The translations under genes and the position numbers were made by a program. DNA of 56,777 nt from positions 1 to 56,777 of the IMG/VR virus record IMGVR_UViG_3300046822_000213; one strand, given 5' to 3'. Below the pieces are notes generated by a model. That model saw only the letters and a program-made list of their open reading frames with translations, was not told the origin of the DNA and made no database searches. Source of the DNA: a virus. Its lineage: Duplodnaviria > Caudoviricetes. Shown piece after piece: positions 15,716 to 55,200 of this stretch (positions are counted from its first letter, which is position 1; each line of letters starts with the position of its first letter).

Positions 15716-15921
15716 CGACACCAGTTGGCCCGACCCAGCCCTTCCATGTGACCCTGCAGGCGCAGGAATGGAACAATCTGATCGCGGCGCTGCACGATGC
15801 GCCGTACAAGATTTCCGCACCGCTGATCCAGTCGATCAGTCAGCAGCTCCAGGAACAAGCCGATAACGCGCCTCAGCCCAACGGCACCATGGGAGTCGGC
15901 ATTCCGATGCAGCCCAACTAG
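15712..15921 (+). CDS. Small helical protein (fibre assembly-associated?)
   Basis: ATGA coupling; L...EWN....AL...PY....PLI..I..Q pattern often found beside fibre genes. Confidence 0.55.
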   Translation: MTTPVGPTQPFHVTLQAQEWNNLIAALHDAPYKISAPLIQSISQQLQEQADNAPQPNGTMGVGIPMQPN

Positions 15922-15924
15922 GCG

Positions 15925-16413
15925 ATGCGTTACCGCAAGCTCGATCAAAACGGCGACATGACTTTTGGTCATGGCACTGGGAATTTCTGGCATGACGTAC
16001 CGGATGCGGTGGGCCAGTCAGTCCAGACCCGTCTCATGCTGTTTGCGGGCGAGTGGTTCCTCAACATCACGGAAGGCACACCGTGGGGCGGCTTCCCGCT
16101 CAATGACCAAGTGGTGTTGCAAGGCCGTATCTTGGCTGAGCATACCCAGTTGTCGCGCGATGCGGCGATCCGTGACCGCATTATTTCGACGACGGGCGTC
16201 GCGACGTTGGTCGAGTATTACAGCACGATTGATGCCGAGACGCGCGCGTTTCGCGTAAATGCGGTGATCGACACGACCTACGGCGGCAACATCGTCCGGT
16301 TGACGATTGCCGCCGTACCGGGGGCGCAACCAAATGTCCAAATCAAGGTTGCGCCCACCATCAACGTGACGAGACCGCCGCCGCCATTCCTGCGACAACT
16401 ACCGGCACGGTGA
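15925..16413 (+). CDS. Baseplate wedge / sheath initiator (gp25-like)
   Basis: MRYRKLD.NGD.TFG.G...AV.Q.V.TRL.LF.GEWFL...GTPW; immediately upstream of baseplate J. Confidence 0.75.
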   Translation: MRYRKLDQNGDMTFGHGTGNFWHDVPDAVGQSVQTRLMLFAGEWFLNITEGTPWGGFPLNDQVVLQGRILAEHTQLSRDAAIRDRIISTTGVATLVEYYSTIDAETRAFRVNAVIDTTYGGNIVRLTIAAVPGAQPNVQIKVAPTINVTRPPPPFLRQLPAR

Positions 16414-16417
16414 CGCG

Positions 16418-33185: not shown

Positions 33186-35420
33186 TCACCCGCAATTACT
33201 CCAGCCACAAGAGGTGCACTTAGCGCAGCCCTCTACCCGGATCACGGCGGGAGCATAGCACGACGGGCATTCGCTGCCAAGTTCACCATAGCCAACTCCG
33301 TGATCGCCCGGCATAACGCTGACCGATGGCGCTTCGCCCGTGATGTAGCCCACCTTGATCATGTGGCGGCGCAAGCAATCTCCGATCAACGCTACCTCGG
33401 ACGCGACATAGCGTTGGTTGATGAACTCACCGCCGCGTGCCGAATAAATCTGCATCAACTCGGTCGCCAGGAACCCAAAATCGGCGTCGCGCCGCATCAC
33501 GGCGGACATCGTGCGGGTCAGCGCCCGCAACCAGTGATCGTAATCGGCGGACTTGGCCCGGACAAAGATTTCATACGGCACCCGCCGCCCATCCGGCTCG
33601 ATCGTATCGTTGATGGTGACGTAGAGCGACTTACCATCCCAGCGCAATTTATAGGTAGTCCCGGTCAGCTCTTCCGGGCGGTGACGCAGCGGTGCCGCCG
33701 CGACCGCCATCAGCACCGGCATTTTAGGGGCCTCATCGACCGATAATACGGAGCCGGTCACATCATTGGGCCGATAGGTGGTGCATGACTTGGCCCCTAC
33801 GTCATAAGCGTAATGGTAAACGTCCTTGAACTCCTCGAAGCTGATGTCGCGCGGCAGGTTGATGGTCTTGCTGATCGACTGATCGACGTGATTTTGGGCC
33901 GCCGCCAGCATGTCGATGTGTTGCTTCCAAGTCAATTCGTGAGTAGTAACGAAGCTTCCTGGTAACGGCTCATCACCACGCAGCTCGCACCATTGGCGAT
34001 AAGCGAAATCATCGACCTTCTCGGTGACGTGAGATCCGTTGCCCTGCAGCACCTTGCGATTGTAGAAGTGACTGAATACCGGTTCGACTCCGCCGGATAC
34101 ATTGCCCGCAAACAATGAAATAGTGCCGGTAGGAGCAACCGCCATCAAGTGCGAGTTCCGCATACCCTTGCGCTTCACCCGATCCTGCACCGCTTGCGGC
34201 AATCGCTTGAAGCGCTTGCCCTCGCAGTACAGGTCAGACGCGTAGAGCGGGAATGGCCCTTTTTCCTCAGCCAAATCCGCCGATGCGAGATAAGCCGTCG
34301 TCTCGATTATCGACATCCAAGCGTTAGTTTCTTCCACCGCCGCATCTGAACCGTAGCGCAGCCCGCACATCACTAGGGCATCGGCCAGCCCGGTGATGCC
34401 CATCCCCATACGCCGCTTAGCTCGGGCCTGCTCGGCCTGCTGTGGCAGCGGAAAGTTTGAGATGTCGACCACGTTATCCAGCATCCGGATAGCGACCGGC
34501 ACTACCGTCTCCAGCAGCTCGACATCAATCGCCGCGTCGGGCGTAAACGGTTCAGTAACGAAAGCCGCCAGATTAAGTGACCCCAATAAGCACGACGAAT
34601 AAGGACCTTGCGGAACTTCACCGCACGGATTGGTGCAAGTGATGTCTTCACAATAGTACAGGTTGTTCTCTTGGTTGATCCGGTCAATGAAGATGACGCC
34701 AGGATCGGCAACGTCAAAGGTGGCGCGCATCAAGCGATCCCACAGCTCACGTGCGTCAACCCACTGGACCACTTCACCATTGAACTTCAATCCCCAAGAG
34801 CCGCCCTCTCGGACTTTCGCCATGAATTGATCAGTGACCAACACTGACAAATTGAAGTGACGCAGCTCGGCCTTATCGCGCTTAGCTTCAATGAAAGCCT
34901 CGATGTCGGGGTGATCACAGCGCAGCGTCGCCATCATCGCGCCCAGCCGGTCATGCGCGTCGACCATCGTTTGCGACATCGCGTCCCAGCAGCGCATAAA
35001 GGCCAGTGGCCCTCGCGCGCGAGACCCGGTGCCGTTTACATAACTGCCCGCCGGACGAATGGTCGAGAAGTCATGCCCGATTCCGCCGCCCTGCTTCAAT
35101 GTCAGCGCCGCCTCGGACAGCGCGCTGAAGATGCCTTCCATACTGTCATCAATCGGCCCCATGACGTAGCAGTTCATCATGGTGACGTTCCGACCAGTCC
35201 CGGCCCCCGCCAGAATGCGGCCCCCCGGTATGAATTTGTAGTCCTCCATCGCCCAGTAGAACTGCGAGGCCCAAGTGTCGACGTCACGTTCCGGCTGGGC
35301 CAAGGCGCGGGCTACCCGTAGCCACGTGTCCTCGATGTATTGATCGATCGGGGTGCCGTCAGGATCGCGCAAGCGATACTTAGCGTCCCAAAATTTCATA
35401 GAAATTTCACCATGCGGCAT
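33186..35420 (-). CDS. nrdJ: Adenosylcobalamin-dependent (class II) ribonucleotide reductase with C-terminal TSCPD-like domain and Zn ribbon
   Basis: PGGRIL, NCYV, TNPCGE, CLLGS, APTGTIS, SISKTIN, C-terminal CPSC...EGC..C..CGWS.C; no nrdB nearby. Confidence 0.9.
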   Translation of the reverse strand: MPHGEISMKFWDAKYRLRDPDGTPIDQYIEDTWLRVARALAQPERDVDTWASQFYWAMEDYKFIPGGRILAGAGTGRNVTMMNCYVMGPIDDSMEGIFSALSEAALTLKQGGGIGHDFSTIRPAGSYVNGTGSRARGPLAFMRCWDAMSQTMVDAHDRLGAMMATLRCDHPDIEAFIEAKRDKAELRHFNLSVLVTDQFMAKVREGGSWGLKFNGEVVQWVDARELWDRLMRATFDVADPGVIFIDRINQENNLYYCEDITCTNPCGEVPQGPYSSCLLGSLNLAAFVTEPFTPDAAIDVELLETVVPVAIRMLDNVVDISNFPLPQQAEQARAKRRMGMGITGLADALVMCGLRYGSDAAVEETNAWMSIIETTAYLASADLAEEKGPFPLYASDLYCEGKRFKRLPQAVQDRVKRKGMRNSHLMAVAPTGTISLFAGNVSGGVEPVFSHFYNRKVLQGNGSHVTEKVDDFAYRQWCELRGDEPLPGSFVTTHELTWKQHIDMLAAAQNHVDQSISKTINLPRDISFEEFKDVYHYAYDVGAKSCTTYRPNDVTGSVLSVDEAPKMPVLMAVAAAPLRHRPEELTGTTYKLRWDGKSLYVTINDTIEPDGRRVPYEIFVRAKSADYDHWLRALTRTMSAVMRRDADFGFLATELMQIYSARGGEFINQRYVASEVALIGDCLRRHMIKVGYITGEAPSVSVMPGDHGVGYGELGSECPSCYAPAVIRVEGCAKCTSCGWSNCG

Positions 35421-36351: not shown

Positions 36352-36543
36352 CTAGGATTGATCTAGCGGTGAATCATCCTTGATCTGTTGCCGGTATCCT
36401 TGGGCAATCGCGTCACATAAACGACGATGTGACGTCGCTTCGCCCTGCAGGCTGCTGCCGCGCCATTGATCCTCATAGTCCCAGAATATGCGCGCGGCGA
36501 ACTCCCAAGCGGCGGCGTGCTGTTCTAAATCTTCATTGGTCAT
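36352..36543 (-). CDS. Hypothetical protein
   Basis: ATGA coupling with the helicase gene. Confidence 0.5.
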   Translation of the reverse strand: MTNEDLEQHAAAWEFAARIFWDYEDQWRGSSLQGEATSHRRLCDAIAQGYRQQIKDDSPLDQS

Positions 36544-37607
36544 CGGCTAATCACTATGATGCTGTGGGCAGCTCGGGTAATGCCGGTGTAGAGTACCGCC
36601 TTGCGGTCCTCATTGAAGCATTCGTCAACCAATATCACCTTGTTCCACTCGGACCCCTGCGAGCGGTGCACCGTCAGCGCGTAGCCAAAGGCGAAGGGTG
36701 ACCAGCCCTCCTCGTACTGTTCATTTTTAAAGTCCCGGCTGACGCCTTCGATCGTCGCCATTTCGATCTCTTCCTCATAGCCATCGATGTTGATGAAGAT
36801 GGTGGGATCGTATGGGTCGACGTCCGCCGCCAGCTCATACACCGCGCCATTGAGAATGCCGATCCGGTGGTTGTTCTTCATGCAAACCAGTGGCTCGCCC
36901 CGGCGCGGCGGCCCCTCAATGCCGAGATATTGGCGTTTCTTCATATTGGCGAGCTGCCGGGTCTTGTTGGTGTAACACAGTAGCATGTCGGCTTCGATGA
37001 ACTCATCGGGCGTCGTTTTGTACACCACCCGGAACTCCGGTCCGTCTTCCTCAAAACTGCCGCCGTTGCGGACGGCATGGGCCTGCCGGATGATTGGCGA
37101 ATCCAGTGCCTGCCGGTGAATGTTGGTCAGCATGACGTCAGCCTTGGCGAAGAATGGCTCGTCGCGGACTGGTGGAAGCTGACCAGGATCACCCGCTGCG
37201 ACGATTCTGGCCCCGGTATTTAACAGGACTTCAGCAACTCTGGTGCCGATCATCGAACTTTCATCGAGCATCACCAGCCGGTCGATCTGCTGCTCCCTCG
37301 CATCGAATTTGGGAGCCTTGATGCCACGGTCGTCATCGAGACCCAGCCCCCGGAAGTCATAGAAGGCTGAATGAATAGTCGATACGTTCATCCCGATGCG
37401 CTGCTGCAATACATAAGCGGCCTTGCCGGTGTAAGCCGCTAGGATTGCGTTGGGGTGGCGCTTGGCCAGCTCCGCCAGTACAACAGTTTTCCCAACCCCT
37501 GCAAGGCCATGTAGAGATAAGTACTGTCGATTTGTGTACCACCTTCCTGCAATGAAGGACTCTATTTTATCCAATGCTTTGATTTGATCCGGAGAAAATT
37601 TCACCAA
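36540..37607 (-). CDS. Dda/RecD-like SF1B helicase
   Basis: GLAGVGKT, AYTGKAA, LDESSM, GDPGQLPPV, LT.IHRQ, YALTVHRSQGSEW, LYTGITRA. Confidence 0.9.
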   Translation of the reverse strand: MVKFSPDQIKALDKIESFIAGRWYTNRQYLSLHGLAGVGKTVVLAELAKRHPNAILAAYTGKAAYVLQQRIGMNVSTIHSAFYDFRGLGLDDDRGIKAPKFDAREQQIDRLVMLDESSMIGTRVAEVLLNTGARIVAAGDPGQLPPVRDEPFFAKADVMLTNIHRQALDSPIIRQAHAVRNGGSFEEDGPEFRVVYKTTPDEFIEADMLLCYTNKTRQLANMKKRQYLGIEGPPRRGEPLVCMKNNHRIGILNGAVYELAADVDPYDPTIFINIDGYEEEIEMATIEGVSRDFKNEQYEEGWSPFAFGYALTVHRSQGSEWNKVILVDECFNEDRKAVLYTGITRAAHSIIVISR

Positions 37608-37628: not shown

Positions 37629-37913
37629 TCATGTTTGGTACTGCGCCAGTAACTTTTGCAGCCGTTTCACTTCCTTTTCCAACCGTTTGCTTTTCTTGCG
37701 CTCCACTGATAACACACCTTGATGATCGGCTTTTCCCATCCCCATAACGCCATACTTGATGAAGTACGGCGTCGCGCATAACAGTTTGCCCCAGAACGGC
37801 CCCTCCAAATTGCGCCGGATGTCGGAGTCATTAACCCCAACAATTACTTCATCCAACGCTGCGTGCAATCTCTCGTCGATTTCCGGTGGACCGTTTACTG
37901 ATTTCTTTCCCAT
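37629..37913 (-). CDS. Hypothetical protein
   Basis: AGAGAGGA RBS; overlaps the end of the SNF2 gene. Confidence 0.55.
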   Translation of the reverse strand: MGKKSVNGPPEIDERLHAALDEVIVGVNDSDIRRNLEGPFWGKLLCATPYFIKYGVMGMGKADHQGVLSVERKKSKRLEKEVKRLQKLLAQYQT

Positions 37914-39360
37914 TTTTAATTATCCTCTCTGGTAAAATGCGTAGCGCCTTGAAGACGCTCTCGACCATGTTGGCTTTGTATTGTAACGCCTCGGCTATCT
38001 TGTCGTCAATGGTCGAGCAGGAAATCGTGTGGTACACCACTGAATTGGTTTGACCGTAGCGGTGATTGCGATCAGCAGACTGCCACATGATGTCGGCGTC
38101 GAAGATGCACTCATAATACAACGTGGTTGAGCAGCGCTGGGTGTCGGTTCCCAGGAGAGTGTGGCCGCGCGCCCCCACGGTGAGTTGAGCCAGCATCACC
38201 TTGACGTTGTCATCCGTGTTGAATGCTAACTTGACCGCCTCAATTTCAGTGTCCTTCATCCCGCCGCGCAATACGACGAGACCATAGCCCTTCAGTGCCG
38301 TCGCCAGCGTCTCGACCGAGTGCCGGTGAAAGGCGAAGACGATGATTTTACCAGTGGTTGCTTCAATCACTTCCTTGGTGAGGTTGATCGCCGGGTTTTT
38401 GTCGGATGAGATCAAGTCACGAGCGACGCCTTCATTGTCAATAATGAAGCCACGGGCGATCTGCAGCAACTTGTTGTACATGTTACCGACATGAGCGGCA
38501 TAAATTACTTCCTCGCCCTCTTCCGGGTCCCAGATGGGCAAACCGGTGCAGTACTCCATCAGCATGCTGTCATACATTTCCTGCTGTAGCCGCTGCATCT
38601 CAAATTCAAGCGGGTGCGGCCAAATCTTCGGCGGCAGGTCGGTCCAGTCAACCTTGAGCGCCCGGATGCCGCAACTGGCGACGATGTTCTGGAACTCCAG
38701 CTCGCACTCCGGTCGCAGCCCTCGGGCCTCGCGTCCCTTGAAGCCGCCCATCACGGCAAAATGATTGCGGAAAGCGACTGGGTTCCAGCCGTTGAGCGCC
38801 CCACACCAGCGAAGCTGCGGATACATTTCCATGATGCTATTGGTCCAGGGCTGACCCGACATCGCCCGGAGCTGTTTAGCATAGCTTCGTAGAAACATTG
38901 CCTTCTTGTTCCACTTACCGCCGACCCTGGCGATCGCCCGGCTTTCATCGGCGGCCATCATGTACGGCGTGCCGGATTTCAGCAGTGCCTCCAGATGCTG
39001 GCCCCCAGAATGTAGCATCGACTCGTAGTTATAGACGATGGCGTGCGGCTCGCGGTACTCCCTGGCACCTACCTTTGGTACTTTAGGCCACGTGAATAGT
39101 GGGAACGGCATTTCCCACTTTGCCCATTCATCGCGCCACGTCGACTTGAGGTAGGACGGTGCCAGGATGACCAGCCCGGCGACGCGGCCCAGCGTCACTT
39201 CTCGCATGAAGTCGGCGCACAGCACCATCGACTTACCAAGGCCCATCTCCAGCCAATAACCATAGCGCTCGCGGTCGCGGCTGTGATCAAAGGCTAGCCG
39301 CTGCACTTCATATGGCTCGGCCTTCAGCGGCCAGTCATATGGCTTATCCACCACTTGCAT
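37849..39360 (-). CDS. SNF2-like SF2 helicase
   Basis: EMGLGKS, NYES, ADES, MSG.P, LLQI..GF, QS.DR.HRYGQ. Confidence 0.85.
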   Translation of the reverse strand: MQVVDKPYDWPLKAEPYEVQRLAFDHSRDRERYGYWLEMGLGKSMVLCADFMREVTLGRVAGLVILAPSYLKSTWRDEWAKWEMPFPLFTWPKVPKVGAREYREPHAIVYNYESMLHSGGQHLEALLKSGTPYMMAADESRAIARVGGKWNKKAMFLRSYAKQLRAMSGQPWTNSIMEMYPQLRWCGALNGWNPVAFRNHFAVMGGFKGREARGLRPECELEFQNIVASCGIRALKVDWTDLPPKIWPHPLEFEMQRLQQEMYDSMLMEYCTGLPIWDPEEGEEVIYAAHVGNMYNKLLQIARGFIIDNEGVARDLISSDKNPAINLTKEVIEATTGKIIVFAFHRHSVETLATALKGYGLVVLRGGMKDTEIEAVKLAFNTDDNVKVMLAQLTVGARGHTLLGTDTQRCSTTLYYECIFDADIMWQSADRNHRYGQTNSVVYHTISCSTIDDKIAEALQYKANMVESVFKALRILPERIIKNGKEISKRSTGNRREIARSVG

Positions 39361-39362
39361 CC

Positions 39363-39542
39363 TTATACGAGACCTTTCTCCTGGGCGAGCCATTCGGGCA
39401 TAGTGAATGACTCACCATCATGTTCAGTCAGGGACTTAGGCACCCAGCACTCGATTTCGCCGTCATTGATGAGATAAGCCAGCTCGGTCTCCCTGATGAG
39501 TTCGGCTTCGATCTCCACCGTCTCCCGCTCACGTGCCATCTG
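39363..39542 (-). CDS. Conserved small phage protein (W.PKS...TMPEWLA.EKGL)
   Basis: Recognisable motif; GGGTGA RBS. Confidence 0.7.
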   Translation of the reverse strand, partial: QMARERETVEIEAELIRETELAYLINDGEIECWVPKSLTEHDGESFTMPEWLAQEKGLV

Positions 39543-39957
39543 CGTCACCCCCTCTTATTTTGGTCTGGATGGCAACATCGGCCAAGAAAGCGTAGTTGGC
39601 AACGTCGGCCAATTCAAATAACGTGTTCATGTCGAGCGCATCGGCGGCGAATTGCTCTTCAAATTCAGTTATCTCGGATCGCAATCGCTCAATGATGCGC
39701 GGCACGTCATCCACCACGGGAGTTTGCTTGTGGCTGTTTTTATCCAGCTTGACCAGCATGGCAGTGAAAAACCGGTGTAGGTCGGTGTTATATTGGGCAA
39801 GTGACTTCGGGATAGTTAGTGTCAGTTCCACGTCGGTCTCCGCCGTTACACCATATTTAGGGCAGTGCGGTTCGTGATACCTGCCAAAGCCAGTGAAGCA
39901 AAAGCAGCAAGCCCCCGAAACATCCTCTGCTAGTTCTGTGTCGACTCCCAGTTCCAA
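39529..39957 (-). CDS. MazG-like all-alpha nucleotide pyrophosphohydrolase (MazZ candidate) with N-terminal Cys/His motif
   Basis: L..EI.EF......E.ADVAN.A acidic tetrad of MazG-like enzymes; two genes from purZ. Confidence 0.6.
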   Translation of the reverse strand: MELGVDTELAEDVSGACCFCFTGFGRYHEPHCPKYGVTAETDVELTLTIPKSLAQYNTDLHRFFTAMLVKLDKNSHKQTPVVDDVPRIIERLRSEITEFEEQFAADALDMNTLFELADVANYAFLADVAIQTKIRGGDADGT

Positions 39958-39966
39958 GTCGGCCCC

Positions 39967-40326
39967 TTATTCAATGACACGAAATTGGTCGCCATCGTTC
40001 ACTCGACGCCCGGTGCCACCGCGAAAGCGAATAACCCGCTGCGCTACCGGATGGCCCACCCACTGGTCCCATACCAAAAGGCCCCCTTCGACCTCTTCGA
40101 TGAAAATGGCGGCATGACTGCGGCCATCGGTGTGGTTACCGTAATGCCCGTCACTATCGAACGTGGCAATAGCCACGCCCCCTTCGAGGCCGCTGCCGCG
40201 CACCATGACACCGGGTTGCCAATGCGAAGTGTGCGGCGCATCCGTGCAAGTTTGGACGTATCTGACGCACTGGCCGTTAGCCACGACTTGCCCCTCATAG
40301 CCCTCTGGATTACTGGCGATCCACAT
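39967..40326 (-). CDS. BPSL0067-family papain-like peptidoglycan amidase (endolysin candidate)
   Basis: GQCV.YV...T..W..G..V....G.AIATF...G.Y.N...G.SHAAIF...V.DQW; GGAGG RBS before ATG 40326. Confidence 0.75.
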   Translation of the reverse strand: MWIASNPEGYEGQVVANGQCVRYVQTCTDAPHTSHWQPGVMVRGSGLEGGVAIATFDSDGHYGNHTDGRSHAAIFIEEVEGGLLVWDQWVGHPVAQRVIRFRGGTGRRVNDGDQFRVIE

Positions 40327-41452
40327 GTGTTCCTCCATCAGAGTTCCACGTCGGCTCTCGCTTATCGTACCACGACACTGCGGCGTCCAGGTTGTCGGTG
40401 ACATCCTCAACCGCTGGCCCGAAACCGTAAATGCGGTGAACATTTGCATTGCCTACCTTGCGCTCAATCCGCTGCATGTGATGTAGCAGACCCAAAAATG
40501 CCGTGCCGCTTGGCAGGTAGTTGCAGAAATTGAGGAAGACCATCGTCGGGCGGTTCAGCTCCAGCGCATCCTGGTACTGTTGATTGGACCACGAGGCGAT
40601 GCGCCGCATCCGCTTGGTGACAGTGGTGCGCTCTGGCTCGATACCGGGAAAGTCGCGCTTCCAATCCAGCTCAATCGAATCTGGGTAAAATGGCCCGCTG
40701 CGGCCCAGCAGCTCGCCCTGCTCGTTGTAAGAGTCACCGACCCGGATCGGGTAGGTCCGCATCGTCATGCAGATCGGCCCAATGAATGACGGATGAATAC
40801 CGGCATCGGACAGCCCGGCGGTGACGTAAGCATCGCGGCTGGTGCAGTATGGGTAGGCGTAGCCGTGGTTGAGGCTGAGACCGGCCCCCTGCGGAATTTC
40901 CAGGACGATCGACGCGTTGTAGATGTCCATCTCGCCGTTGAGGCACAGCGGCTCTACTTTCACCCAGGAAGGCAATTTTGATCCCTGGGCCAGCGGCGCG
41001 CGCCGCATTACTTTATCAGCGATCGCCTGTCCGACACCATGCATGGTCGAGGCGATCCGTGCCGGACCATTTTCTGGGATGCGCTCCGCCGCCTTCATCG
41101 CATCGGTAATGATTGACGCGCGCGGGTGCACTGTGATCCGCAGCCGGTCAATCTTGCAATCCTCGACTTCTTGCTCAAATGACGGCAGGTCAATGATTGA
41201 ACCGGCGTTGATGTAAATTCTGGATTCGGGCCGCAACACCCCCGTCGTTGGCAGGGTGTAGCAGATGAATTTCCAGCCATCGACGATCGAAGTGTGACCA
41301 GCGTTTGCGCCGCTGTTGCAGGTAGCAATTCCAACCGGATCGCGGCAAAATCTTGCTAGCCATGCGGCAGCGGCCCCCTTACCGGTCGACCCAAAGGCCC
41401 CGTCACATAGCACCGATACTTTGCCACATTTTGACCACTCGCCAACCGTCAT
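40310..41452 (-). CDS. purZ: PurZ-type N6-succino-2-amino-2'-deoxyadenylate synthase (adenylosuccinate synthetase paralogue)
   Basis: P-loop FGSTGKG (Ser where PurA has the catalytic Asp in GDEGKG), NAGHT, YPYCTSR, TYPIRVG, TTVT, FLNFCNY in place of PurA TKLD. Confidence 0.85.
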   Translation of the reverse strand: MTVGEWSKCGKVSVLCDGAFGSTGKGAAAAWLARFCRDPVGIATCNSGANAGHTSIVDGWKFICYTLPTTGVLRPESRIYINAGSIIDLPSFEQEVEDCKIDRLRITVHPRASIITDAMKAAERIPENGPARIASTMHGVGQAIADKVMRRAPLAQGSKLPSWVKVEPLCLNGEMDIYNASIVLEIPQGAGLSLNHGYAYPYCTSRDAYVTAGLSDAGIHPSFIGPICMTMRTYPIRVGDSYNEQGELLGRSGPFYPDSIELDWKRDFPGIEPERTTVTKRMRRIASWSNQQYQDALELNRPTMVFLNFCNYLPSGTAFLGLLHHMQRIERKVGNANVHRIYGFGPAVEDVTDNLDAAVSWYDKREPTWNSDGGTHVDRQ

Positions 41453-41976
41453 TCCGGATACCCTTTCTGTAGGTCACGCCACGATACCCGGTTGCGATTA
41501 GACCGAATTAACCTGTCATCTGGCTTTCCCAGCCATTCTACCTCGATCTGCCCAGCACCGCATTCAAGGCTACGGATGATGCCGATCGCGCCACTCCCCC
41601 GGAAAACTACGTGATCACCGACGCGGGCCTCCTTGTCATCGGCTAGTTTCACTCCGCGCTTTCCCTTGTGACCAACACTGCGTACCGCGTCACTCGGCGG
41701 TATCGATCCGGACTCCAACCGAATTTCAGCTAAAGCACGGGCAACCAGCATCGGGTAGCCCGCCATATCAACCCAATGCTCTTCACAATTGTGATCGCCC
41801 GATAGCATTCGAGCGATCTTAATAGTCATCAGGTCCAGCACTTCGCGTTGAAATTCGGAGAGCTTCGGCCAGTTGGGTGAGCCGCGCCATATTTCTTTGG
41901 CGGCTTGGGCTATCCTGGCGTTTTCGGTAAATGGGCCGTGAGTGTCGCTGCGAACGTTAATCGGGTGATCGTCCAT
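41449..41976 (-). CDS. DUF6378-like protein with C-terminal SH3-like extension
   Basis: R...HG.F......Q..K...L...KIAR...GD....HW.D.AGY..L motif; GATAGAGGAG RBS; ATGA-coupled to purZ. Confidence 0.7.
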   Translation of the reverse strand: MDDHPINVRSDTHGPFTENARIAQAAKEIWRGSPNWPKLSEFQREVLDLMTIKIARMLSGDHNCEEHWVDMAGYPMLVARALAEIRLESGSIPPSDAVRSVGHKGKRGVKLADDKEARVGDHVVFRGSGAIGIIRSLECGAGQIEVEWLGKPDDRLIRSNRNRVSWRDLQKGYPE

Positions 41977-41992: not shown

Positions 41993-42493
41993 TCACGCCT
42001 CCATACAAGCACGGATGGCGGTCTTGTGTCTAGACATCTCATGAGAAACTAGCAGCCGCTGCATGATGGCGACGATTGGCCATGCTCCGCCGCGATCACG
42101 GAACAAGCCGACACGTGCCGGATCCACGTTCAAATCAACCAATAGTGGCGACGCCATCAGGACATGATCAGCTTCATGGTCAGTGCCAACCTGCATCGCC
42201 ACCCGACCAGTGCCGGATTTCACTTCGACCGCCAAGATCCATCCGGCGCAGCCCCCCGCCTGCTGCACTTCGCGCAAGAACTTACTTTGGTGCGCGGTTA
42301 ATTCCAGCGGATAGCGTTCCGACAACCGCAGCCCGCGTAGGAACTTAACCTCTAGGAACCAATGAGGATAGCCCGGCAACACCAGCGACAGGTCAGCTAC
42401 CCCTACCGTGAAAGCATTGCTGCACTTAAAGCCGTGGCCCCCGGCGTCATTGGCAGCTTTGGCCAGCGCGGCCTGGATCAATAATTCGTTGAT
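41993..42493 (-). CDS. VRR-NUC / PD-(D/E)xK nuclease (Holliday junction resolvase candidate)
   Basis: GVADL......FLEVK...LT.HQ.KFL......GG; start either TTG 42481 or ATC 42493. Confidence 0.7.
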   Translation of the reverse strand: MNELLIQAALAKAANDAGGHGFKCSNAFTVGVADLSLVLPGYPHWFLEVKFLRGLRLSERYPLELTAHQSKFLREVQQAGGCAGWILAVEVKSGTGRVAMQVGTDHEADHVLMASPLLVDLNVDPARVGLFRDRGGAWPIVAIMQRLLVSHEMSRHKTAIRACMEA

Positions 42494-43089
42494 ATCAACC
42501 TCCCTTTACGCGAGTTATCCCTCGCCCACAACGGTTGAATATTAGTGAAGTGACAAGCCGCCAAGAATTGTTCCCGATTAGTAAGATCAAAAGAAGCTAA
42601 CGGGCGTATATGATCAAGATGCCACTTACCATAATTATTCCAGGACATGCCTGTCCAAAAAAGCGTTTCGATGTAATCCCGAAACGCTGAAATAGTGCAC
42701 CCAAGATCGCGGACAGCGGACCCAGCGCGGGCATTCGAGCGAACTGCCATGTTAAGACGAGTTCGAAGCTTTTGTCGAAGCATTGTCAAAGGATGTTTGC
42801 TTCGGCATGTCGGGCAACGACCGTAACCCGGAGCGTTGGCTGTCGGAATAAAAATGCGGCTACACACAACACATGACTTAATCCGTCGCGGTTTTCTCTT
42901 TTGCCTACATGTTCCGCATCGCGACCTTGCCCCTTGACTTGGCGTAGTTTTAAACGTACGCTCGCAGTCAAGACACACTCGCTCCTGTATGGGCTGTGAT
43001 CTAACGTGACATCTATTACAACGCCCGCCCCCCGGTCTAGCACGTGGCGGGGTGTAGTCTTTGCCGCAATCACGGCAGATTTTAGTCAT
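42478..43089 (-). CDS. HNH endonuclease with N-terminal Zn-finger repeats
   Basis: LGCT...F..Y.E..F..GMSW.NYG.WHLDHI.PL..FDL.....HFTN.QPLW..DN..KG; three CxxC..CxxC units; AT-richer than its neighbours. Confidence 0.8.
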   Translation of the reverse strand: MTKICRDCGKDYTPPRARPGGGRCNRCHVRSQPIQERVCLDCERTFKTTPSQGARSRCGTCRQKRKPRRIKSCVVCSRIFIPTANAPGYGRCPTCRSKHPLTMLRQKLRTRLNMAVRSNARAGSAVRDLGCTISAFRDYIETLFWTGMSWNNYGKWHLDHIRPLASFDLTNREQFLAACHFTNIQPLWARDNSRKGRLISTNY

Positions 43090-45080
43090 ACGGCCTCTCC
43101 CGTGGCCGTCCGCTGCATGAGAGGCGTCGCGGCTATAGATATAGCGGCCAGCGTGCCTCCCTGCACCAGAGAGGCCGCGACGGGCGTCGCCTGGGGCATC
43201 TGGACCGCCCCGCGCACCCGGTCGTAGTCGCTGCCCATCTCGCGGAAGGCGTCACGCACCTGACCGAGACCGTAGGACGCCTCCGCCCAGTTGGCCCCCT
43301 CGTCCACCTCAAGGGCCAGCGGCACGGTCAGATCGAACTTCTGGCCGGGTCCGTAATCCTCGGTCATCATCACCAGTGCGCGTTGGTAGACTTGTTGGTT
43401 GTCCGGATGATAGCTGAAATCGAGGCTGTCGTGCACATTGTTGAGCAAGAAAGTCGTATCGCCCTGCGCCATCAGATATTCGTCGATCTCGGCCATCGAC
43501 CGCTTTAAGATATCGGCGTTGCTGGTTTGCAGGATGCGATTAAGCGCCCGGTAGGCAAAATTCGGATTAGGCTCACGTGACCGGCGGCCCATCAATGACT
43601 TGATGTAACCACGCTGCTCCATGACGCCGGTAGCATAAGACTGGAAGCCACCATTGCCCGGAACTGCCGGGCTATTTTTATTCAGTTCGGGCATTGCCTC
43701 GAAGTAATCATTGACAATTTGGTCGGCCTCGGCCTGTGGGCGGTTCAACATCAGCGCTGCCTTGCGGCGACCACAGCCGGTCAGCAGCGCTTGGTTTAGT
43801 TGCTTACCCGCCTGCCTTGGAATATTGGCAGCGAGCGCGACCGCTGAATGAGCATCGATCGGCGGGTCAGACATGTAACCTTCAATCAGCACCTTTACTT
43901 GAGCAAAATGGGCGAGGAGACGCGGCTCGATTTGGCTGTAGTCAGGCGATCCCCAGACATGCCCTTCTTCCGGGATGAAGATCGAGCGGAACAACGACCC
44001 AAGGATCGGGTCACGTTTGTTCACCTGCTGTAGATTCGGGTCACTGGATGATAGCCGCCCGGTGACGGTACCGTACTGCTCACCTCGGGTCTGGTTGTAG
44101 CTGGTGTGAACCCTGCCGTTCCACAGGTGGCGCTCCGCCATCGGGCGCAGGAAGGCGTTTTCGAGATGGGACAGCTTGCGGACAGTAACGATGTCGCGGC
44201 CCAGTGGCGTGGTCAGCAACCAATGCTCAGCAAAGGACGGGATGCCATTTGGATGCATCTTGCTGGGAGCGGTCATCGGCCAGTTGGTGAGACTGGCGTC
44301 GGTGAAGATCTGCTTAAGCTGGGTAGGTGCATTTTCATTGAAGCCGGGCGGCAGGCGACGCCGGGCCTGCTCCATTCGCTGCTTGATCATCCGGCGCACC
44401 TGATCGAGCCGCTCCTCATCGATTCGCACGCCGCGCACCATCATCCGGTGCAGCACTCGAATGCAGCGATTCTCGATCTCCCAAATACCGGTCAGGTTCT
44501 GGGAAGCGATCTCTGGTAACTGAGCATCGCGTAGCTGCCACGTGCTGGTGCCGTCGCCCACCGCGTAGTCGACTGCAACGGCGTCGTCACCAGCCAGCTT
44601 CCAGTAGTGCTGCATTTGCTTGCGATCAGGCGTCCCGCCGAAACGCCCGGCCAAACGCTTGTACAACTCTTCACCCTTTTTCTCCTGGACCTTCATTGCG
44701 ATGCAGCAGGCTTCCAGGGTGAATGATCGCTGGTTTTCATCAATGAGATAGGCATTGATCTGGGCGTCCTCCAGTGGCCCCCTAATTTCGACATCATCGC
44801 GGTGCATGAATTTGAGATCAAAGCTATAGGAGAAGCCGATCGTGCGCAGGTCGGGCCGCGACAGGTGACGGCGCAGCATCGCTAATGTCTTGTCCGGGTC
44901 GAGGTTGCCGCCGCCGCCGTGCCGGATCGGCAGGTAATGCGAGTCCGCAGGATTGCCGGAAAAGGTCAGGACGTAACCAACGGTGTGGTCGTTTTTCCAG
45001 TCCAACCCGGTCGTCTCGGTGTCGATCACCAGCTCTTTGGCGGCGTCGATGCGGCTGGCGATCCAGCTAAGGTCGATCAT
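43086..45080 (-). CDS. Family A DNA polymerase with 3'-5' exonuclease (DpoZ candidate)
   Basis: DTETTG exonuclease motif, TGRLSSSDPNLQ, motif A DYSQIEPR, motif C VHDS; no 5'-3' exonuclease domain. Confidence 0.9.
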   Translation of the reverse strand: MIDLSWIASRIDAAKELVIDTETTGLDWKNDHTVGYVLTFSGNPADSHYLPIRHGGGGNLDPDKTLAMLRRHLSRPDLRTIGFSYSFDLKFMHRDDVEIRGPLEDAQINAYLIDENQRSFTLEACCIAMKVQEKKGEELYKRLAGRFGGTPDRKQMQHYWKLAGDDAVAVDYAVGDGTSTWQLRDAQLPEIASQNLTGIWEIENRCIRVLHRMMVRGVRIDEERLDQVRRMIKQRMEQARRRLPPGFNENAPTQLKQIFTDASLTNWPMTAPSKMHPNGIPSFAEHWLLTTPLGRDIVTVRKLSHLENAFLRPMAERHLWNGRVHTSYNQTRGEQYGTVTGRLSSSDPNLQQVNKRDPILGSLFRSIFIPEEGHVWGSPDYSQIEPRLLAHFAQVKVLIEGYMSDPPIDAHSAVALAANIPRQAGKQLNQALLTGCGRRKAALMLNRPQAEADQIVNDYFEAMPELNKNSPAVPGNGGFQSYATGVMEQRGYIKSLMGRRSREPNPNFAYRALNRILQTSNADILKRSMAEIDEYLMAQGDTTFLLNNVHDSLDFSYHPDNQQVYQRALVMMTEDYGPGQKFDLTVPLALEVDEGANWAEASYGLGQVRDAFREMGSDYDRVRGAVQMPQATPVAASLVQGGTLAAISIAATPLMQRTATGEAV
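43091..43187. repeat. Inverted-repeat element with GCTATAGATATAGC core (copy 3, inside the polymerase 3' end)
   Basis: Core 43132-43145 is identical to 23832-23845; flanked by cggcctctc / gagaggccg. Confidence 0.75.
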
Positions 45081-49516: not shown

Positions 49517-51037
49517 TTACTCGGATGGCGTCCACAGCTTGCAGCAGTCGATCGGGGAGATCGGCGGCTCTACCTTCGCGCAGGCATCGCGCCCGTGGAA
49601 GTGTTCACATTCCGCGCAATGGTGCGGTCCTTGGGATGGCCGCTCGTACATCACGGAGTCGTGATCGCGCAGCTTCTGCGCATCGTGGACCTTGGGGGGC
49701 ATCAAATGCTCTGACGCTATCTTCCGGTCGCGTCCTCGGTTAAGAAAGGCATGTAGCTGGTGGTGCGGCACCAGAGATACCCCTTCACTTTCCCAGCCGT
49801 GTCCGGTCGGCGTCCCGCCCTCTCGGACAGCATGATAGTAGCGGGTCATCGAAGTGTCGCCCTCGTAATCCCCAGCATGGCCCACGATCCGGCCCTTCAG
49901 CCCGGATTCCTCGAAGGCCTCCTTGATCGCGGTGGCCTGCAGCGAATGGCCCTTCTCCCGGCCACCTTTAGGGAAAGTATACTTGTAGCCGCCGTAGGCG
50001 TTGGTCGGCTTGATGATCCAAACCCGACCATCCGGCTCACGCATCAGCAGCCCGGCACCTACCTTTTTGCCCTTGGAGTTCAACGGCGGCTCTGAGATGT
50101 CGGCTTGCCCCTCGACCTTGCTCCAGTCGGCTGGCGGCTTGAATGGCTTGAACGGCACGCCATGTAGGTCGGGCGGATCGGGGTCGCCCTCCTTGAAGTG
50201 AGCGGCACCCGACCCAAACTGACCGCCTTTGCTCCGCTTATGTTCGGATTCCACCCAGTCGTCATGAACGTGGACGCGCACACCAGTTATACGGTCAAAT
50301 GCTTTTTCCAAAAGCGGATTGACCCTGACACCCGATTTGCCGTAATCTTGATGACTGTAAGCCGAAAACGACTCGGCTATCCATTCCTTCGGGTTCAGCG
50401 AAGCATAAGTTGATAACTCTTTTGAAATAGAATCTTTGTTTGCTGCGAATACTTTATCAACAGATATTAACCGACCAACAGCCTCTTCAAGCGAATGCCC
50501 GATCTCATGTCTAAGTAAATCAGCCAGTGTACCGCCGACAACTGTTGTTTTTTCATCGACCTTTACGCCACCACGTTTAAGAGGTTGCGGTGTATCTATT
50601 ATAAGCTGACCACTTAAATATAACTCGCCCCCGTTCTCAGGAATATACATTCCCAAACCGTCATCTTGCAGTAAATCTTCGTAGCCTACCCCAATACCGC
50701 CTTGTACTCTTCTAGCAAATTTCAGCTTTGGAAATCGCGTTTTAAGATCGGTCAAAGTATGGTCAATAATTCCCAGAGAGCTTCGATAATCATCCTCCGT
50801 AAAATCTTCACTGTAATTTCCACTTACAGCAACACCATGTTTCTTGGTGAAACTTTCTTCAACTTTATCAATAGACTGTTTTGACTTTGACTTTGATCCC
50901 CCACCTTCAGTGAATTTACCGCCTGCTTCTCGCGGGTGTTTTTCCTCTTTGAACTCCGCATCCTTAGTCTCATCCTCGTCTACTTCATCGTAGTCATGAA
51001 CGTGGACGCGTAGACCGGGCGATGAGTGCAGCAACAT
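49517..51037 (-). CDS. Polyvalent protein: zincin-like metallopeptidase + Nudix hydrolase + HiPIP-like Cys domain
   Basis: HEIGH...YA..N..EWIAESF; Nudix box GG.E.......AIKEAFEESG; CxxCxxF....C..V...I.P..CC..W. Confidence 0.75.
   Translation of the reverse strand: MLLHSSPGLRVHVHDYDEVDEDETKDAEFKEEKHPREAGGKFTEGGGSKSKSKQSIDKVEESFTKKHGVAVSGNYSEDFTEDDYRSSLGIIDHTLTDLKTRFPKLKFARRVQGGIGVGYEDLLQDDGLGMYIPENGGELYLSGQLIIDTPQPLKRGGVKVDEKTTVVGGTLADLLRHEIGHSLEEAVGRLISVDKVFAANKDSISKELSTYASLNPKEWIAESFSAYSHQDYGKSGVRVNPLLEKAFDRITGVRVHVHDDWVESEHKRSKGGQFGSGAAHFKEGDPDPPDLHGVPFKPFKPPADWSKVEGQADISEPPLNSKGKKVGAGLLMREPDGRVWIIKPTNAYGGYKYTFPKGGREKGHSLQATAIKEAFEESGLKGRIVGHAGDYEGDTSMTRYYHAVREGGTPTGHGWESEGVSLVPHHQLHAFLNRGRDRKIASEHLMPPKVHDAQKLRDHDSVMYERPSQGPHHCAECEHFHGRDACAKVEPPISPIDCCKLWTPSE
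50261..51010. repeat. 18-bp perfect direct repeat (gtcatgaacgtggacgcg at 50261 and 50993) bounding an AT-rich cassette
   Basis: Both copies encode RVHVHD on the - strand; spacing is 732 nt (in frame). Confidence 0.85.
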
Positions 51038-52225: not shown

Positions 52226-52254
52226 ATTAAAACACACTTTGACAAGCCTGTCAA
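52226..52254 (-). promoter_or_regulatory. Sigma70-type promoter TTGACA-17-TTTAAT with TTGACA..TGTCAA palindrome
   Basis: Reverse complement ttgacaggcttgtcaaagtgtgttttaat. Confidence 0.7.
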
Positions 52255-55200
52255 GCGGCCAAGGGCTGGGGCGACGGCTGGATCAGCTCGCTGAGCTTCT
52301 CATGATGGACGGCACCCGCGCCACGCCCGGAACGCATCAAGGTCACCTCCATCTCCAGCTTATTGGGGTCGAAGTTGTCGATGCGGAACTTTGAACCGCG
52401 CTGAATCAAGATTTCGTTCTCGCCAGGGTGATCCGAATAATGGCCGATCGCCGCCGCCTGCGCGCCCTTCGGCAGATTGATCTTGAGGGTCAGCTTGCCC
52501 GACCAGTGATCGGTCGATGCGAACCCAAAATCCTGGAAGATGTGGACATCGTCTTGGGTCTCCTCCATCAGCCATTCGGCGAAGTCGCTGCTGACCCGGC
52601 GCTTGACGGTGATCGCCTCGGGCAAGCTGGCCTTGCTGAGGTAGGACGCCAGCGCATCGGTCGGATAGCCGCCCGATTTCTTGCCGAATGACCCGCGCAG
52701 CGCTTCATTCCATGGGTCGTAGGACCCGCCAGAATACTTGAAGATAGCGGCGGCCTCGGCCTTGGTCGGGATCGGGGCCTGCTTCAATCGGGCCTTGTAG
52801 GTGTCGTCCCAATTCCCGTTGGTGTGATGTTTCTTGGGCGGGGCCTTTTCCGGCGGCACCGCGCCGGGCGTCGCACCGGGCGCGGTAGCGATACCGGCCT
52901 GCGCGGCGATGGCATCGCGGCGCTTGATCAGCTTCTTGGCTAACTCGATCTTCTCTTCATCGGTGCCGGGACCAAACTTGGCGACGGCAGCGATGATGTC
53001 ACTGTTGCTAATGGCGGCGACAGCTTTCGCCCCCTCCTGCAATTGTTCGGGCGCAGCCTTGCTGAAAAATGCCACCGCTTGCGGATTGGAATAACCCGAC
53101 TTCATGCTCTCCCATTCACCGGCATCATTATCGAAAGCGGAGCCTTTCAGTCCGCCCTGAGCGCGATAAATCAGCGCGCCGCCGACATCCATCGGCGTCA
53201 CTTTGCCATTGATCACACCCATATTATCATCGGCCAGACCTACCGCGTCCCAGTTCGCCAGCCAAGCATGGACAGCGTATTGTTTAAATGCCTCGTTCTG
53301 CTCCGCTAGCGTCATATTGGCAGTACCCATCTTGGCATCTGACCAATCGGTAACGATTCGCTCAGGGTAGTCGGTGTCCTGGTGGTAGGTCAAGGTCGGG
53401 ACGCCAGCCATCGAATAGAGCGACGCCGCCAGCATCTCATTCTGGGCGTGACTGACCGACTTGGTATCCTTGACGTAGTACTTTTTGCCGGTGTCGGGGT
53501 CCTCGTAAGTACCGCCGGGATTCGAGCCAAGATTGCTGCCCAGCTTTTTCCAATGGGTGCCGTCGACCGGGTGCGCCACGGCTGTCGGGGCCTTGGGTCC
53601 AGCCGCAGCCGGTGGCGGCGGGATATTGGCTAGATGATCCTCCAGCCCGTTGGCTCCCGCCCCCTCGATGACATAAGCACTACCGTCGCCCTTGGGTAAG
53701 ATATGCTTCCACTCGGACTTGCCTTCAGCATTGACGTCCTTGTGGACATAGAGCAGCCCGCCGCCCACCTCATATGAGTTGACGTTGGGATCGCTCGACC
53801 CGACCGGCTTGGCACCAGCCTTATTCAACGATATTGCGATGAAAGAATTGGGATGAAGCGGTGCAGCGGCGTCAGGTGGCGGTTTCGGCCCGCCGCTGCC
53901 AGCCAACATCTCTGACAACATTTTAGCACCATTACCCGGCTTAGCGTTCGTAGGGTCATATTGAAGCAGGAAACCCGTATCGTACTTGTTTAAGGTCAGT
54001 TTTTTACCATCTGGAAAGGTGTAAATGTCCACATAGTTTGAGGCTTTGACGAGAGTGGCACCGGAATCTGTTAATGCCTGTTCCATCGCTGAATCAGGAT
54101 GAGATATCTTGGGTTTCTCTGCCGGTGGCGTCAGCCCGCCGCCCGTGTGCTTCAATGGCGCGTGCTTCGCCGTCTCGGCCTGCAGACTGGCGAGGTCGCT
54201 ACCCTTGGCAATGACGCCGTCACCTGATCTCCAGACTTCCCAACCAGACCCGTCATTGAAGACGTGGACGGCCATCGACTTAGCGGTGATGCTTTGGGCG
54301 GGGAAGTAGAACTCCTTGATCTTCTGGCCGCCATTGATGGTAGCGTCTGATATTTCGGGGGTTTGCTCCATCCCAGCCAAAAAATGGCCCAGCGCATCGC
54401 GCTTGTGTTTAGCTTCGAATGCAGCATTGATCGCGCCCGGATCTCCCTGTATTGCATGCTTGGCGAACTCCGCCTCGACGTCATCCGGCTCTTCAAAACC
54501 GCTGTTGTCCGGTTCAACTTCTGGCTCAAATATATTGTCGAGCGGCTCGATGTGGTGCAGTGCGGCGCTCAGCTCCTTGTACCCAGCACCGGCTTCATAT
54601 TGGTCTCCGGTGGTGTTGTCACCGATCGACCATTCATGAACGCCCTCGTCATTCGGTTCCTTGGATATTTCGATATCCATGCCGCCCGGCGTCTTGAGGT
54701 TGTGATAGTACATGTCGTCTTCACCAGGATCAACGATCAACTGGTGTTCCTCGACCAGACTGTGGATGTCAGTGACAGGTTTTTTCTTGGGCGGGGCCGT
54801 CATTTGGAGAAATTGATCCAACTCATCCGGGCCTTCGCCCGACATCATGACGCCGCCCAGACTGTTCTTCACCTGGAAACTGCCGGTGACGGAGTTGAGA
54901 TGCACCGTATCACCAGTCGGCGGATTGTGATAAACCAGGGTGAAGCCGGGCGCAGGCTTGATATGGTCAGCCGACTCAAAGCCCGCTTCATTGAGAGCCT
55001 GACCAAAAGTCGTCTTTGGGGCGGGCTTGGGTTCCGGCTCGGACAGCGACGTCTTGGTGCCGACGCCATTCTGCAACACTGCGCCCAAATTCACCGCACC
55101 GAAACCCGACTGGCTCTTACCCTGCATGTTGGTAATGATCCAGCCCACCTTGCCGTCTGGGTTCGGATGATGGTTAACCACGACAGTGCTGCCATCCGGA

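Follow-up and report, generated by a model that had tools for sequence, protein, structure and literature searches.

Phages that carry 2-aminoadenine (Z) in place of adenine are described as siphoviruses and podoviruses whose gene clusters encode PurZ, MazZ, and DatZ (PMC8342488; PMC8599892). MazZ-1 of the S-2L type has been distinguished from MazZ-2, a phiVC8-like variant encoded between purZ and datZ (Czernecki 2021, PMC8342488), and S-2L PurZ accepts dATP as a donor (PMC8342488). In the available text of a 2026 Nucleic Acids Research paper, Z pathways without DatZ are described for PurZ0 phages only, with DutZ, DmtZ, and DUF5664-1 (PMC12884076). Here we analyze IMG/VR record IMGVR_UViG_3300046822_000213, a stretch of Caudoviricetes DNA of 56,777 nucleotides (nt), all of which is referred to as the window, and the PurZ gene cluster on its minus strand. 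What is new is a cluster with PurZ proper, MazZ-2, and DUF6378, without DatZ, in a sheath-bearing lineage, and it is a variant of a known system. Literature searches, from whose scope supplements were excluded, returned neither a description of PurZ in a phage with a sheath nor a link between DUF6378 and Z genomes. A term search of PMC12884076 returned no myoviruses or contractile tails, and its Fig. 5 and tables may list PF19905 or myoviral hosts; the text of the metaGPA preprint (10.1101/2025.10.22.683976) mentions neither DUF families nor myoviruses, and its supplementary 116-domain list may hold PF19905.

On balance, the locus probably represents a phiVC8-type extended Z cluster in a sheath-bearing phage that has lost DatZ and would exclude dATP by means of MazZ-2 and/or DUF6378. 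By homology, MazZ-2 would convert dGTP to dGMP, and PurZ would use dGMP and aspartate, with ATP or dATP as donor, to form the dZMP precursor. Host enzymes would complete dZTP, which a DpoZ-like polymerase would insert opposite T, so that virion DNA would be predicted to contain Z. With DatZ, an HD-type dATP triphosphohydrolase, lost from this phage, dATP exclusion would be left to pyrophosphohydrolases, namely a MazZ-2 that lacks a commonly conserved Trp and/or DUF6378. Use of dATP as donor by PurZ and selectivity of the polymerase could contribute further.

PurZ and MazZ-2 of the window

To distinguish PurZ from PurA, the criterion was Ser in place of the PurA catalytic Asp13 in the P-loop (GSxGKG versus GDEGKG). 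A script scan found GSTGKG in the window enzyme, as in 7/7 reference PurZ proteins, whereas PurA of Acinetobacter phage MD-2021a has GDEGKG. Moreover, YPIRVG and NFCN were read in the window translation, and TTVTKR, PIRVG, and FLNFCNYL were kept in the alignment with phiVC8 PurZ. The PDB search ranked phiVC8 PurZ (6FM1, 1.8e-38) and S-2L PurZ (7ODX, 5.4e-36) above archaeal PurA (2D7U, 2.3e-27), the "PurA-like" 7VF6 (1.3e-22), and bacterial PurA (about 1e-14). The top NCBIfam model was NF038379 PurZ at 200 bits, which did not reach the cut-off of 300, and the archaeal-type PurA model scored 154 bits. NF038379 is an "exception"-type hidden Markov model (HMM) built on few cultured phages, and we read the score below its cut-off as divergence, not exclusion. 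Among cultured phages, 201 records matched the window PurZ, all at less than 60% identity, and the best was a Klebsiella phage at 38%.

A single PurZ protein query found no IMG/VR relatives, and an alignment of 35 metagenomic PurZ relatives gave 199 IMG/VR matches, from which 80 loci were kept. All open reading frames (ORFs) of these loci were searched with local HMMs built from window proteins and two annotated phages; many loci are contig fragments, such that absences are partly truncation. Phylogeny was inferred by a quick IQ-TREE search on 83 rows comprising 7 PurZ and 4 PurZ0 references, 1 PurA, 4 copies from metagenome-assembled genomes (MAGs), and the distinct copies from the 80 loci. 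The window fell within a PurZ clade of 78 rows (SH-like approximate likelihood ratio test [SH-aLRT], 99), apart from the four actinophage PurZ0 references (99), and its nearest neighbors were the metagenomic loci L005 and L020 (96). We conclude from these comparisons that the enzyme is of the PurZ type and neither PurA nor PurZ0, with use of dGMP predicted.

The gene second downstream of PurZ had no Pfam or PHROG match on its own, and its start may be a later GTG. The profile of its family, however, matched MazG-like and HisE-type structures (2P06, 6.9e-13; 1VMG; 2YXH; 1YVW), and 20/40 family members matched PRA-PH and 8/40 matched MazG. Residues E95, E98, E115, and D118 were invariant in 40 homologs from related loci. 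In hhalign comparisons, the family (A4) aligned with phiVC8 p26, the gene between purZ and datZ, at a probability of 97% (E, 1.2e-10), and with S-2L MazZ at 1.5% only. Most of the 62 loci that carry MazZ-2 have it directly downstream of PurZ. We conclude that, by family profile, the gene is MazZ-2, for which dGTP-to-dGMP activity is predicted. A side observation is that in L020, L034, L044, L046, and L048 the MazZ-2 domain forms the N-terminal third of 256- to 286-amino-acid (aa) ORFs.

These results bear out much of an earlier annotation made from the sequence alone (the sequence-only reading). It had proposed a PurZ-signature enzyme from GSTGKG, YPIRVG, and NFCN, with which motifs, PDB ranking, NCBIfam model, and tree agree, and the PurA/PurZ/PurZ0 phylogeny that it had named as a check placed the window in the PurZ clade. 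Its MazG-like gene, two downstream of the DUF6378/PurZ pair, proved to be the phiVC8-type MazZ-2. The ATGA coupling that it had noted was read directly at CCGGAATGACGGTT, where the DUF6378 stop and the PurZ start share ATGA.

PurZ-type genes were also seen in other settings. Jumbo-phage contigs of 75 to 427 kb (L039, L043, L054, L076, L077, L080, and L081) carry PurZ-like genes with GS(T/S)GKG and have no MazZ-2, DatZ, DUF6378, or PolA within 10 kb of them. On one jumbo contig, G032 (142 kb), a Phage_sheath_1 gene accompanies the PurZ-like gene. Because a PurZ-type gene and a classical sheath gene share that contig, the bare presence of PurZ in a myovirus is not unique in metagenomes. MAG-binned contigs L101, L102, L103, and L104 also carry PurZ-type genes. 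In L103 (1,000,106 bp, labeled Micavibrio) the gene lies mid-contig, with a MazZ-2-like ORF on its upstream side, and neither DatZ nor DUF6378 occurs within 3 kb; a prophage, misbinning of a phage, or a PurZ of cellular origin could each account for this copy.

Contractile tail and absence of DatZ

The window is a fragment with a CheckV completeness of 76%, and no sheath gene lies inside the window itself. A 51-nt probe from its left end retrieved five IMG/VR contigs, one of which, L089, was 100% identical to window positions 1 to 4273 (4,273 bp). Contig L091 was 99.6% identical to L089 and reached 12,045 bp further left. A tail sheath gene (L091:10454-11941; phrog_205, 5.2e-113; DUF3383, 3.9e-122) lies immediately upstream of window base 1, preceded by a neck terminator gene and directly followed by the tube-like gene with which the window begins. 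G052 (24.9 kb) overlapped L091 at 100% over 4,197 bp and contributed 20,666 bp encoding major capsid, DUF2213, portal, Mu-F-like, and large and small terminase proteins. Together, the left-hand contigs added 32.7 kb (head, neck, and sheath module), for a composite of at least 89.5 kb stitched from three near-identical contigs of different samples; its right end is open and the genome is not closed. For extension at the right end, two patterns searched against viral contigs and two against metagenome contigs gave 0 matches, and the far end of G052 was likewise not extended. Because the composite is at least 89.5 kb, the CheckV value of 76% is an overestimate. We conclude that the phage genome is at least 89.5 kb long and that the window makes up roughly its right-hand 57 to 63%. 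The tail would be of the DUF3383 contractile type, as judged from gene content, in that the sheath gene adjoins tube, tape measure, and baseplate genes. The contractile-tailed lineage of the sequence-only reading was thus upheld by the sheath gene, together with the hub, plug, and Baseplate_J genes in the window.

Two ORFs in the upstream extension (L091:3380-4102 and L091:4200-5003) terminate with PEP-CTERM sorting motifs (2.5e-6 and 4.7e-5). Such motifs are out of the ordinary for a virion module and may point to a host that has an exosortase.

No HD-type gene was found in the available sequence. PF01966, PF12917, and PF13023 gave 0 matches at E<=0.1 in the window and in L091/G051 while positive controls worked, and PF12917 and PF13023 gave 0 matches in G052, on which PF01966 was not run. 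Whole-record Pfam scans covered 50 of the 80 related records, and the same PF12917 search detected DatZ in 43 of those 50. Neither dUTPase nor NDT had a match in the window. The earlier statement that the window lacks an HD-domain gene therefore stands, and it extends to the composite of about 89.5 kb, an unclosed genome in which the G052 portion was scanned with PF12917 and PF13023.

The position of DatZ in relatives is consistent with a true loss. The recurrent order in the 80 loci was PolA, u162 (a small nuclease), DUF6378 or DUF5664, PurZ, MazZ-2, DatZ, and SNF2, with PolA in 59 loci, u162 in 66, and MazZ-2, DatZ, and SNF2 in 62 each. In 62/62 loci having DatZ, the gene started after MazZ-2, between -13 and 1,233 bp downstream of PurZ (median, 292). 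The window retains MazZ-2 and SNF2 on either side of this slot, which contains nothing but a 61-aa ORF. One alternative is a canonical pathway with datZ, or another HD dATPase, in an unseen part of the genome, as might be so because the window is a fragment, the composite is open at its right end, and a 100,388-bp contig is recorded as encoding an identical PurZ. Such an HD gene, however, would have to lie outside the interval that holds DatZ in every related locus that has it, and neither the 32.7 kb added upstream nor a sheath-bearing relative rated 100% complete (G047, discussed below) contains an HD-type match. We consider a hidden datZ very unlikely.

DatZ was also missing elsewhere. Eight loci keep MazZ-2 and SNF2 without DatZ (L005, L063, L068, L070, L072, L073, L074, and L082), and 4 of the 20 records that are at least 90% complete lack DatZ (G001, G028, G047, and G050). 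G050 (44.4 kb, with terminal repeats, rated 100%) has DUF6378 and MazZ-2, no DatZ, and no sheath match. G001 (L005), a complete 64-kb genome with the closest PurZ (50%), has only the replication module in common with the window. We note that in G001, from which DatZ and DUF6378 are both missing, there is a dUTPase-family gene (G001:C1:34662-34964 in a 283-aa frame), a type of solution tied to PurZ0 phages in the 2026 paper (PMC12884076). We conclude that, at the level of gene content, DatZ loss is real and recurrent in several lineages. Moreover, because G047 shares both features, the combination of a sheath-bearing lineage and a PurZ cluster without DatZ is not confined to this contig.

The window MazZ-2 belongs to a subtype without the Trp conserved in most members, and six DatZ-less loci are represented in its 13-member clade (FastTree local support, 100). 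By motif classification, DatZ was missing from 6/11 loci with Trp-less MazZ-2 versus 4/53 of the rest (Fisher P = 9e-4, or 3e-3 with the window left out), and the DatZ-less loci of this comparison lie in three separate PurZ subclades.

A further alternative is that adenine is replaced partially or not at all, such that PurZ and MazZ-2 without DatZ merely enrich the dZTP pool. Consistent with this possibility, the S-2L triad, which includes DatZ, gave only 12% substitution on a plasmid and 4% on the chromosome in Escherichia coli (PMC8342488), low values that indicate that pool control matters. PurZ0 phages nevertheless reach Z genomes without DatZ (PMC12884076). Moreover, the window polymerase is closest to a DpoZ model, and the cluster is kept intact in DatZ-less complete genomes. 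Partial or absent replacement is thus improbable, and loss of DatZ with dATP exclusion by other enzymes is the reading that we prefer.

DUF6378 in PurZ clusters

The protein encoded upstream of PurZ is a divergent member of DUF6378. Its PF19905 score of 22.8 to 23.2 bits lies below the gathering cut-off of 27.1, and yet 42/42 members of the family alignment around it matched PF19905 (best, 3.2e-26). P0122, which is 65% identical, carries PF19905 in a precomputed table, and BLASTP against DUF6378 of Burkholderia phage Bm1 gave 7e-10. An AlphaFold2 (AF2) model had a predicted local distance difference test (pLDDT) score of 80.3, with a four-helix N-domain (residues 5 to 89, mostly >90) and a small beta C-domain (residues 120 to 171), and matched DUF6378 proteins in BFVD with E values down to 2e-7 (probability, 1.0). 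K53, R56, D70, and G73 were invariant, and R9, G14, G60, and Y74 were nearly so, in the pattern THG ... KxxR ... DHxxDxxGY. We conclude that the gene belongs to DUF6378, as read through intermediates and shared motifs, and the sequence-only reading was right about this identity despite the low single-sequence score.

That reading had also placed DUF6378 where DatZ would be expected, which did not hold. DUF6378 has a slot of its own, either immediately upstream of PurZ (34/60 loci) or downstream, after SNF2 (25/60), and it coexists with DatZ in 51/60 loci; the empty place in the window is the one between MazZ-2 and SNF2. DatZ and DUF6378 also coexist in Bm1 and in phiVC8, where hhalign (98.9%, E 1.3e-17) and a local HMM (4.3e-23) identify the unannotated p22 (L106:6458-6754), encoded three genes downstream of DatZ, as a DUF6378 protein. 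S2L_21 of S-2L and gp43 of SH-Ab 15497 were tried as DUF6378 members and were rejected.

DUF6378 and DUF5664 were mutually exclusive. DUF6378 was found in 60 of the 80 loci and DUF5664 in 6, with both in 0 and neither in 14, and DUF5664 fills the identical slot in L020, L022, L037, L038, and L044. In the 50 records, PF19905 was found in 34 and PF18909 (DUF5664) in 9, never in the same record (Fisher P = 4.6e-6, uncorrected for ancestry); PF04447 (DUF550) was found in 0/50 with a silent control and is thus uninformative. DUF5664 of phage Wayne hydrolyzes dATP, dGTP, and dUTP to deoxynucleoside monophosphates, with dATP preferred (PMC12884076). Our leading hypothesis, advanced tentatively on genomic grounds, is that DUF6378 may be a pyrophosphohydrolase analogous to DUF5664, given the exclusivity, the identical slot, and the proven activity of DUF5664.

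Structure comparisons added little. The DUF6378 family profile had 0 matches to PDB sequences at E<=10, and the model matched nothing informative among solved folds, with no MazG-like chain in the top 50. An hhalign comparison gave 0.1% with DUF5664 (5 sequences only) and 0.8% with MazZ-2. BFVD contained a marginal DUF5664-named match (E, 0.027; probability, 0.41). Complex prediction for PurZ, MazZ-2, and the DUF6378 N-domain, run without controls, scored 0.00 and carries no weight either way.

DUF6378 might instead be a general replication accessory, binding DNA or protein, that travels with PolA and helicase modules, while A is excluded by MazZ-2, dATP use by PurZ, and the polymerase alone. 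Strict exclusivity with an enzyme, DUF5664, at the same slot argues against such a role, as do the invariant K, R, and D and the near-invariant THG and DHxxDxxGY, which suggest a ligand or metal site and not a scaffold. One BFVD neighbor was, moreover, named "Nucleotide modification associated domain 1" (E, 8e-4). An accessory role is possible, and we stop short of calling it likely.

Another candidate for the dATP remover is a NUDIX-domain protein encoded at positions 49517 to 51037, overlooked in the sequence-only reading, which would convert dATP to dAMP and pyrophosphate while DUF6378 does something else. Some Nudix enzymes hydrolyze dATP and other deoxynucleoside triphosphates (dNTPs). 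The domain scores above the Pfam cut-off, the Ex2EE part of its Nudix box is intact, with KGGREKGHSLQATAIKEAFEESGL aligned to the box of the Ap4A hydrolase 3I7U (2.2e-6), and the gene lies on the strand of the early/replication block, 8 kb upstream of PurZ. PHROG nudix matches were weak, and the roughly 320 N-terminal residues had no match. Nudix substrates are, however, very diverse, the best solved match being that Ap4A hydrolase, and the gene lies outside the conserved cluster. There is no NUDIX match in the DatZ-less relatives G047, G050, and G001. A systematic link between NUDIX and PurZ was rejected, as only 3/50 PurZ records had a NUDIX match, one of these with DatZ. We regard the NUDIX protein as an unlikely remover of dATP, and MazZ-2 and/or DUF6378 remain our preferred candidates.

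Several observations weigh against that preference. NCBIfam scores of the window PurZ and DpoZ are both below their curated cut-offs. The genome is not closed, and about 11 kb may be unseen if the 100,388-bp contig with an identical PurZ is a guide. DatZ was present in 32/34 records with DUF6378 versus 11/16 without, and the co-occurrence statistics were not corrected for shared ancestry. Furthermore, DUF6378 homologs were found in 200 cultured phage records, mostly without a PurZ match (Salmonella, 54; Klebsiella, 46; Brucella, 41). Because it is positively associated with DatZ and widespread in phages without PurZ, DUF6378 is neither Z specific nor a general substitute for DatZ, and dATP specificity would require local specialization, as in the dUTPase and MazG families.

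A broader proposal is that DUF6378 is a dATP(/dGTP) pyrophosphohydrolase family, a nonhomologous stand-in for DUF5664 that together with Trp-less MazZ-2 makes DatZ dispensable and allows Z genomes in lineages that include contractile-tailed ones. We hold this to be rather doubtful. If it were true, DUF6378 would rank as the most frequent fourth or fifth component of PurZ clusters from the environment, with a copy even in phiVC8. The locus and G047 each present a PurZ-proper cluster in a sheath-bearing lineage without DatZ, dUTPase, or NDT, which sharpens the question of the minimal gene set for excluding adenine. DUF6378, which is small, widespread, and unstudied, and one MazZ-2 subtype are concrete candidates for pool-control enzymes, and a compact DatZ-independent gene set would be of interest for making Z-DNA in cells.

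Cluster layout and comparison with known systems

Genes of the cluster are all on the minus strand, in the transcription order PolA, HNH insert, u162, DUF6378, PurZ, BPSL0067 insert, MazZ-2, 61-aa ORF, SNF2 helicase, and Dda-like helicase (Table 1).

Table 1. Features of the window that bear on the PurZ cluster and the tail, in window coordinates
Feature	Position	Strand	Match or remark
Tail tube-like structural protein, truncated at its 5′ end by the window edge	1-459	+	PF11681 KPP10_Orf10, 3e-47
Tail module: chaperone, tape measure (1101-4376), hub (4373-5830, E217 gp41-type), Dit-like, Pam3 gp18-like plug, fibers, Baseplate_J (16418-17611)	469-17611	+	
Ribonucleotide reductase (RNR) large subunit	33186-35420	-	phrog_84, 2.2e-166
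Dda-like helicase	36540-37607	-	
SNF2-type helicase closing the conserved cluster	37849-39393	-	phrog_62, 2.7e-73; in 62/80 loci
61-aa ORF in the DatZ place of relatives	39363-39548	-	phrog_8389 (function unknown), 2.5e-11; no homolog in 80 loci
MazZ-2 type all-alpha NTP pyrophosphohydrolase (predicted), 142 aa, core residues about 47-137	39529-39957	-	Family profile
BPSL0067-family (papain/CHAP-like) protein, 160-aa ORF	39967-40449	-	NF033857, 2.2e-19, 69.8 bits (cut-off, 27)
PurZ (2-aminoadenylosuccinate synthetase type), 380 aa	40310-41452	-	PF00709, 2.6e-25; phrog_1211 "2-aminooxy adenylosuccinate synthetase," 1.1e-53
Divergent DUF6378 protein, 175 aa	41449-41976	-	PF19905, 1.1e-4/8.4e-5, 22.8-23.2 bits; ORF extendable to 42042
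u162, small PD-(D/E)xK (VRR-NUC-like) nuclease, 162 aa	41993-42481	-	Family profile versus PDB 4QBN "Nuclease," 6.5e-6
HNH/endonuclease VII-like gene between PolA and small nuclease	42478-43089	-	phrog_1035 "endonuclease VII," 3.5e-10
Family A DNA polymerase with 3′-5′ exonuclease domain, DpoZ-like	43086-45080	-	PF00476, 1.1e-52; PF01612, 5.5e-7
NUDIX-domain protein, 506 aa, domain C-terminal (49718-50068)	49517-51037	-	PF00293, 2.1e-14, 49.3 bits, above cut-off

The top NCBIfam model for the polymerase was NF038380 phage_DpoZ_1 at 322 bits (cut-off, 500), with DNA polymerase I at 252 bits, and in the PDB search Klenow (1e-42) and phiVC8 DpoZ (7PBK, 8.6e-41) were about equal. The u162 protein has invariant D30, E44, K46, and Q65 in a 35-sequence alignment, and its structural match, 4QBN, is one that we take to be a VRR-NUC nuclease. 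It was nearly always encoded between PolA and DUF6378/PurZ, and we note that its conservation across PurZ clusters matches that of DatZ or MazZ-2; homologs in cultured phages are often misnamed "DNA helicase" (K21lambda1, Bm1, and phiVC8 p23). The HNH/endonuclease VII-like gene, for which phmmer found no homolog in the 80 related loci, resembles a homing-endonuclease insertion. The BPSL0067-family insert between PurZ and MazZ-2, which the sequence-only reading had passed over, likewise had no homolog in those loci, and its protein-atlas neighbors were CHAP and cysteine-proteinase-fold clusters at 0.94. As its longest possible ORF shares 140 nt with the 3′ end of PurZ, translation probably starts later, near 40338. 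Elsewhere in the window, a 1,319-aa protein encoded at positions 52251 to 56210 on the minus strand has weak C-terminal matches to ADP-ribosyltransferase and head-maturation-protease PHROGs and may be an ejected or internal virion protein.

Among known systems, phiVC8 is alike in its PurZ (34.5% identical over 89% of the length, with the same motifs), homologous MazZ-2, DpoZ-like PolA upstream, and DUF6378 (p22). It is unlike the window in being a 39-kb podovirus with DatZ (p25) between MazZ-2 and downstream genes; the window has no DatZ, DUF6378 upstream of and overlapping PurZ, HNH and BPSL0067 inserts, a contractile tail, and a genome of at least 89.5 kb. S-2L shares the order PurZ then MazZ, with a PurZ 33% identical, and differs by MazZ-1, DatZ, and PrimPol instead of PolA; no DUF6378 was found in the stretches searched (S2L_21 by hhalign and ORFs of a 9-kb locus by local HMM). 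Acinetobacter phage SH-Ab 15497 has a PurZ that is about 30% identical and, beside it, a small helical domain with a MazG-like pyrophosphohydrolase. This DUF5664-DUF550 fusion is reported to hydrolyze both dATP and dGTP (PMC12884076, PMC8342488), and the fusion gene is filed under MazZ-2 in one place of the paper and under DUF550 in another. The accessory domain is thus DUF5664, not DUF6378, and is fused, and the phage is a siphovirus with DatZ. The PurZ0 actinophages, such as Arthrobacter phage Wayne and Gordonia phage Ghobes, also have a Z pathway without DatZ, in which dATP is removed as dAMP by the pyrophosphohydrolases DutZ and DUF5664-1 (PMC12884076). They differ in having PurZ0, another DpoZ group, a dUTPase-derived DutZ, and an NDT-like DmtZ, whereas the window has PurZ proper.

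The closest counterpart in overall design is G047 (L063), an uncultured 60,481-bp genome rated 100% by CheckV and the only one of 50 records with a DUF3383 sheath. It shares the sheath (39% identity), Baseplate_J (39%), PolA (42%), PurZ (39%), DUF6378 (41%), and MazZ-2 (37%), as well as tube, chaperone, hub, RNR, and both helicases (shared genes, 29 to 47% identity). Like the window it has no DatZ, and no match to HD, YfbR-like, HD_3, dUTPase, NDT, or NUDIX was found in it. G047 differs in having a smaller genome, RNR between MazZ-2 and SNF2, neither HNH nor BPSL0067 insert, and a PurZ in a neighboring subclade.

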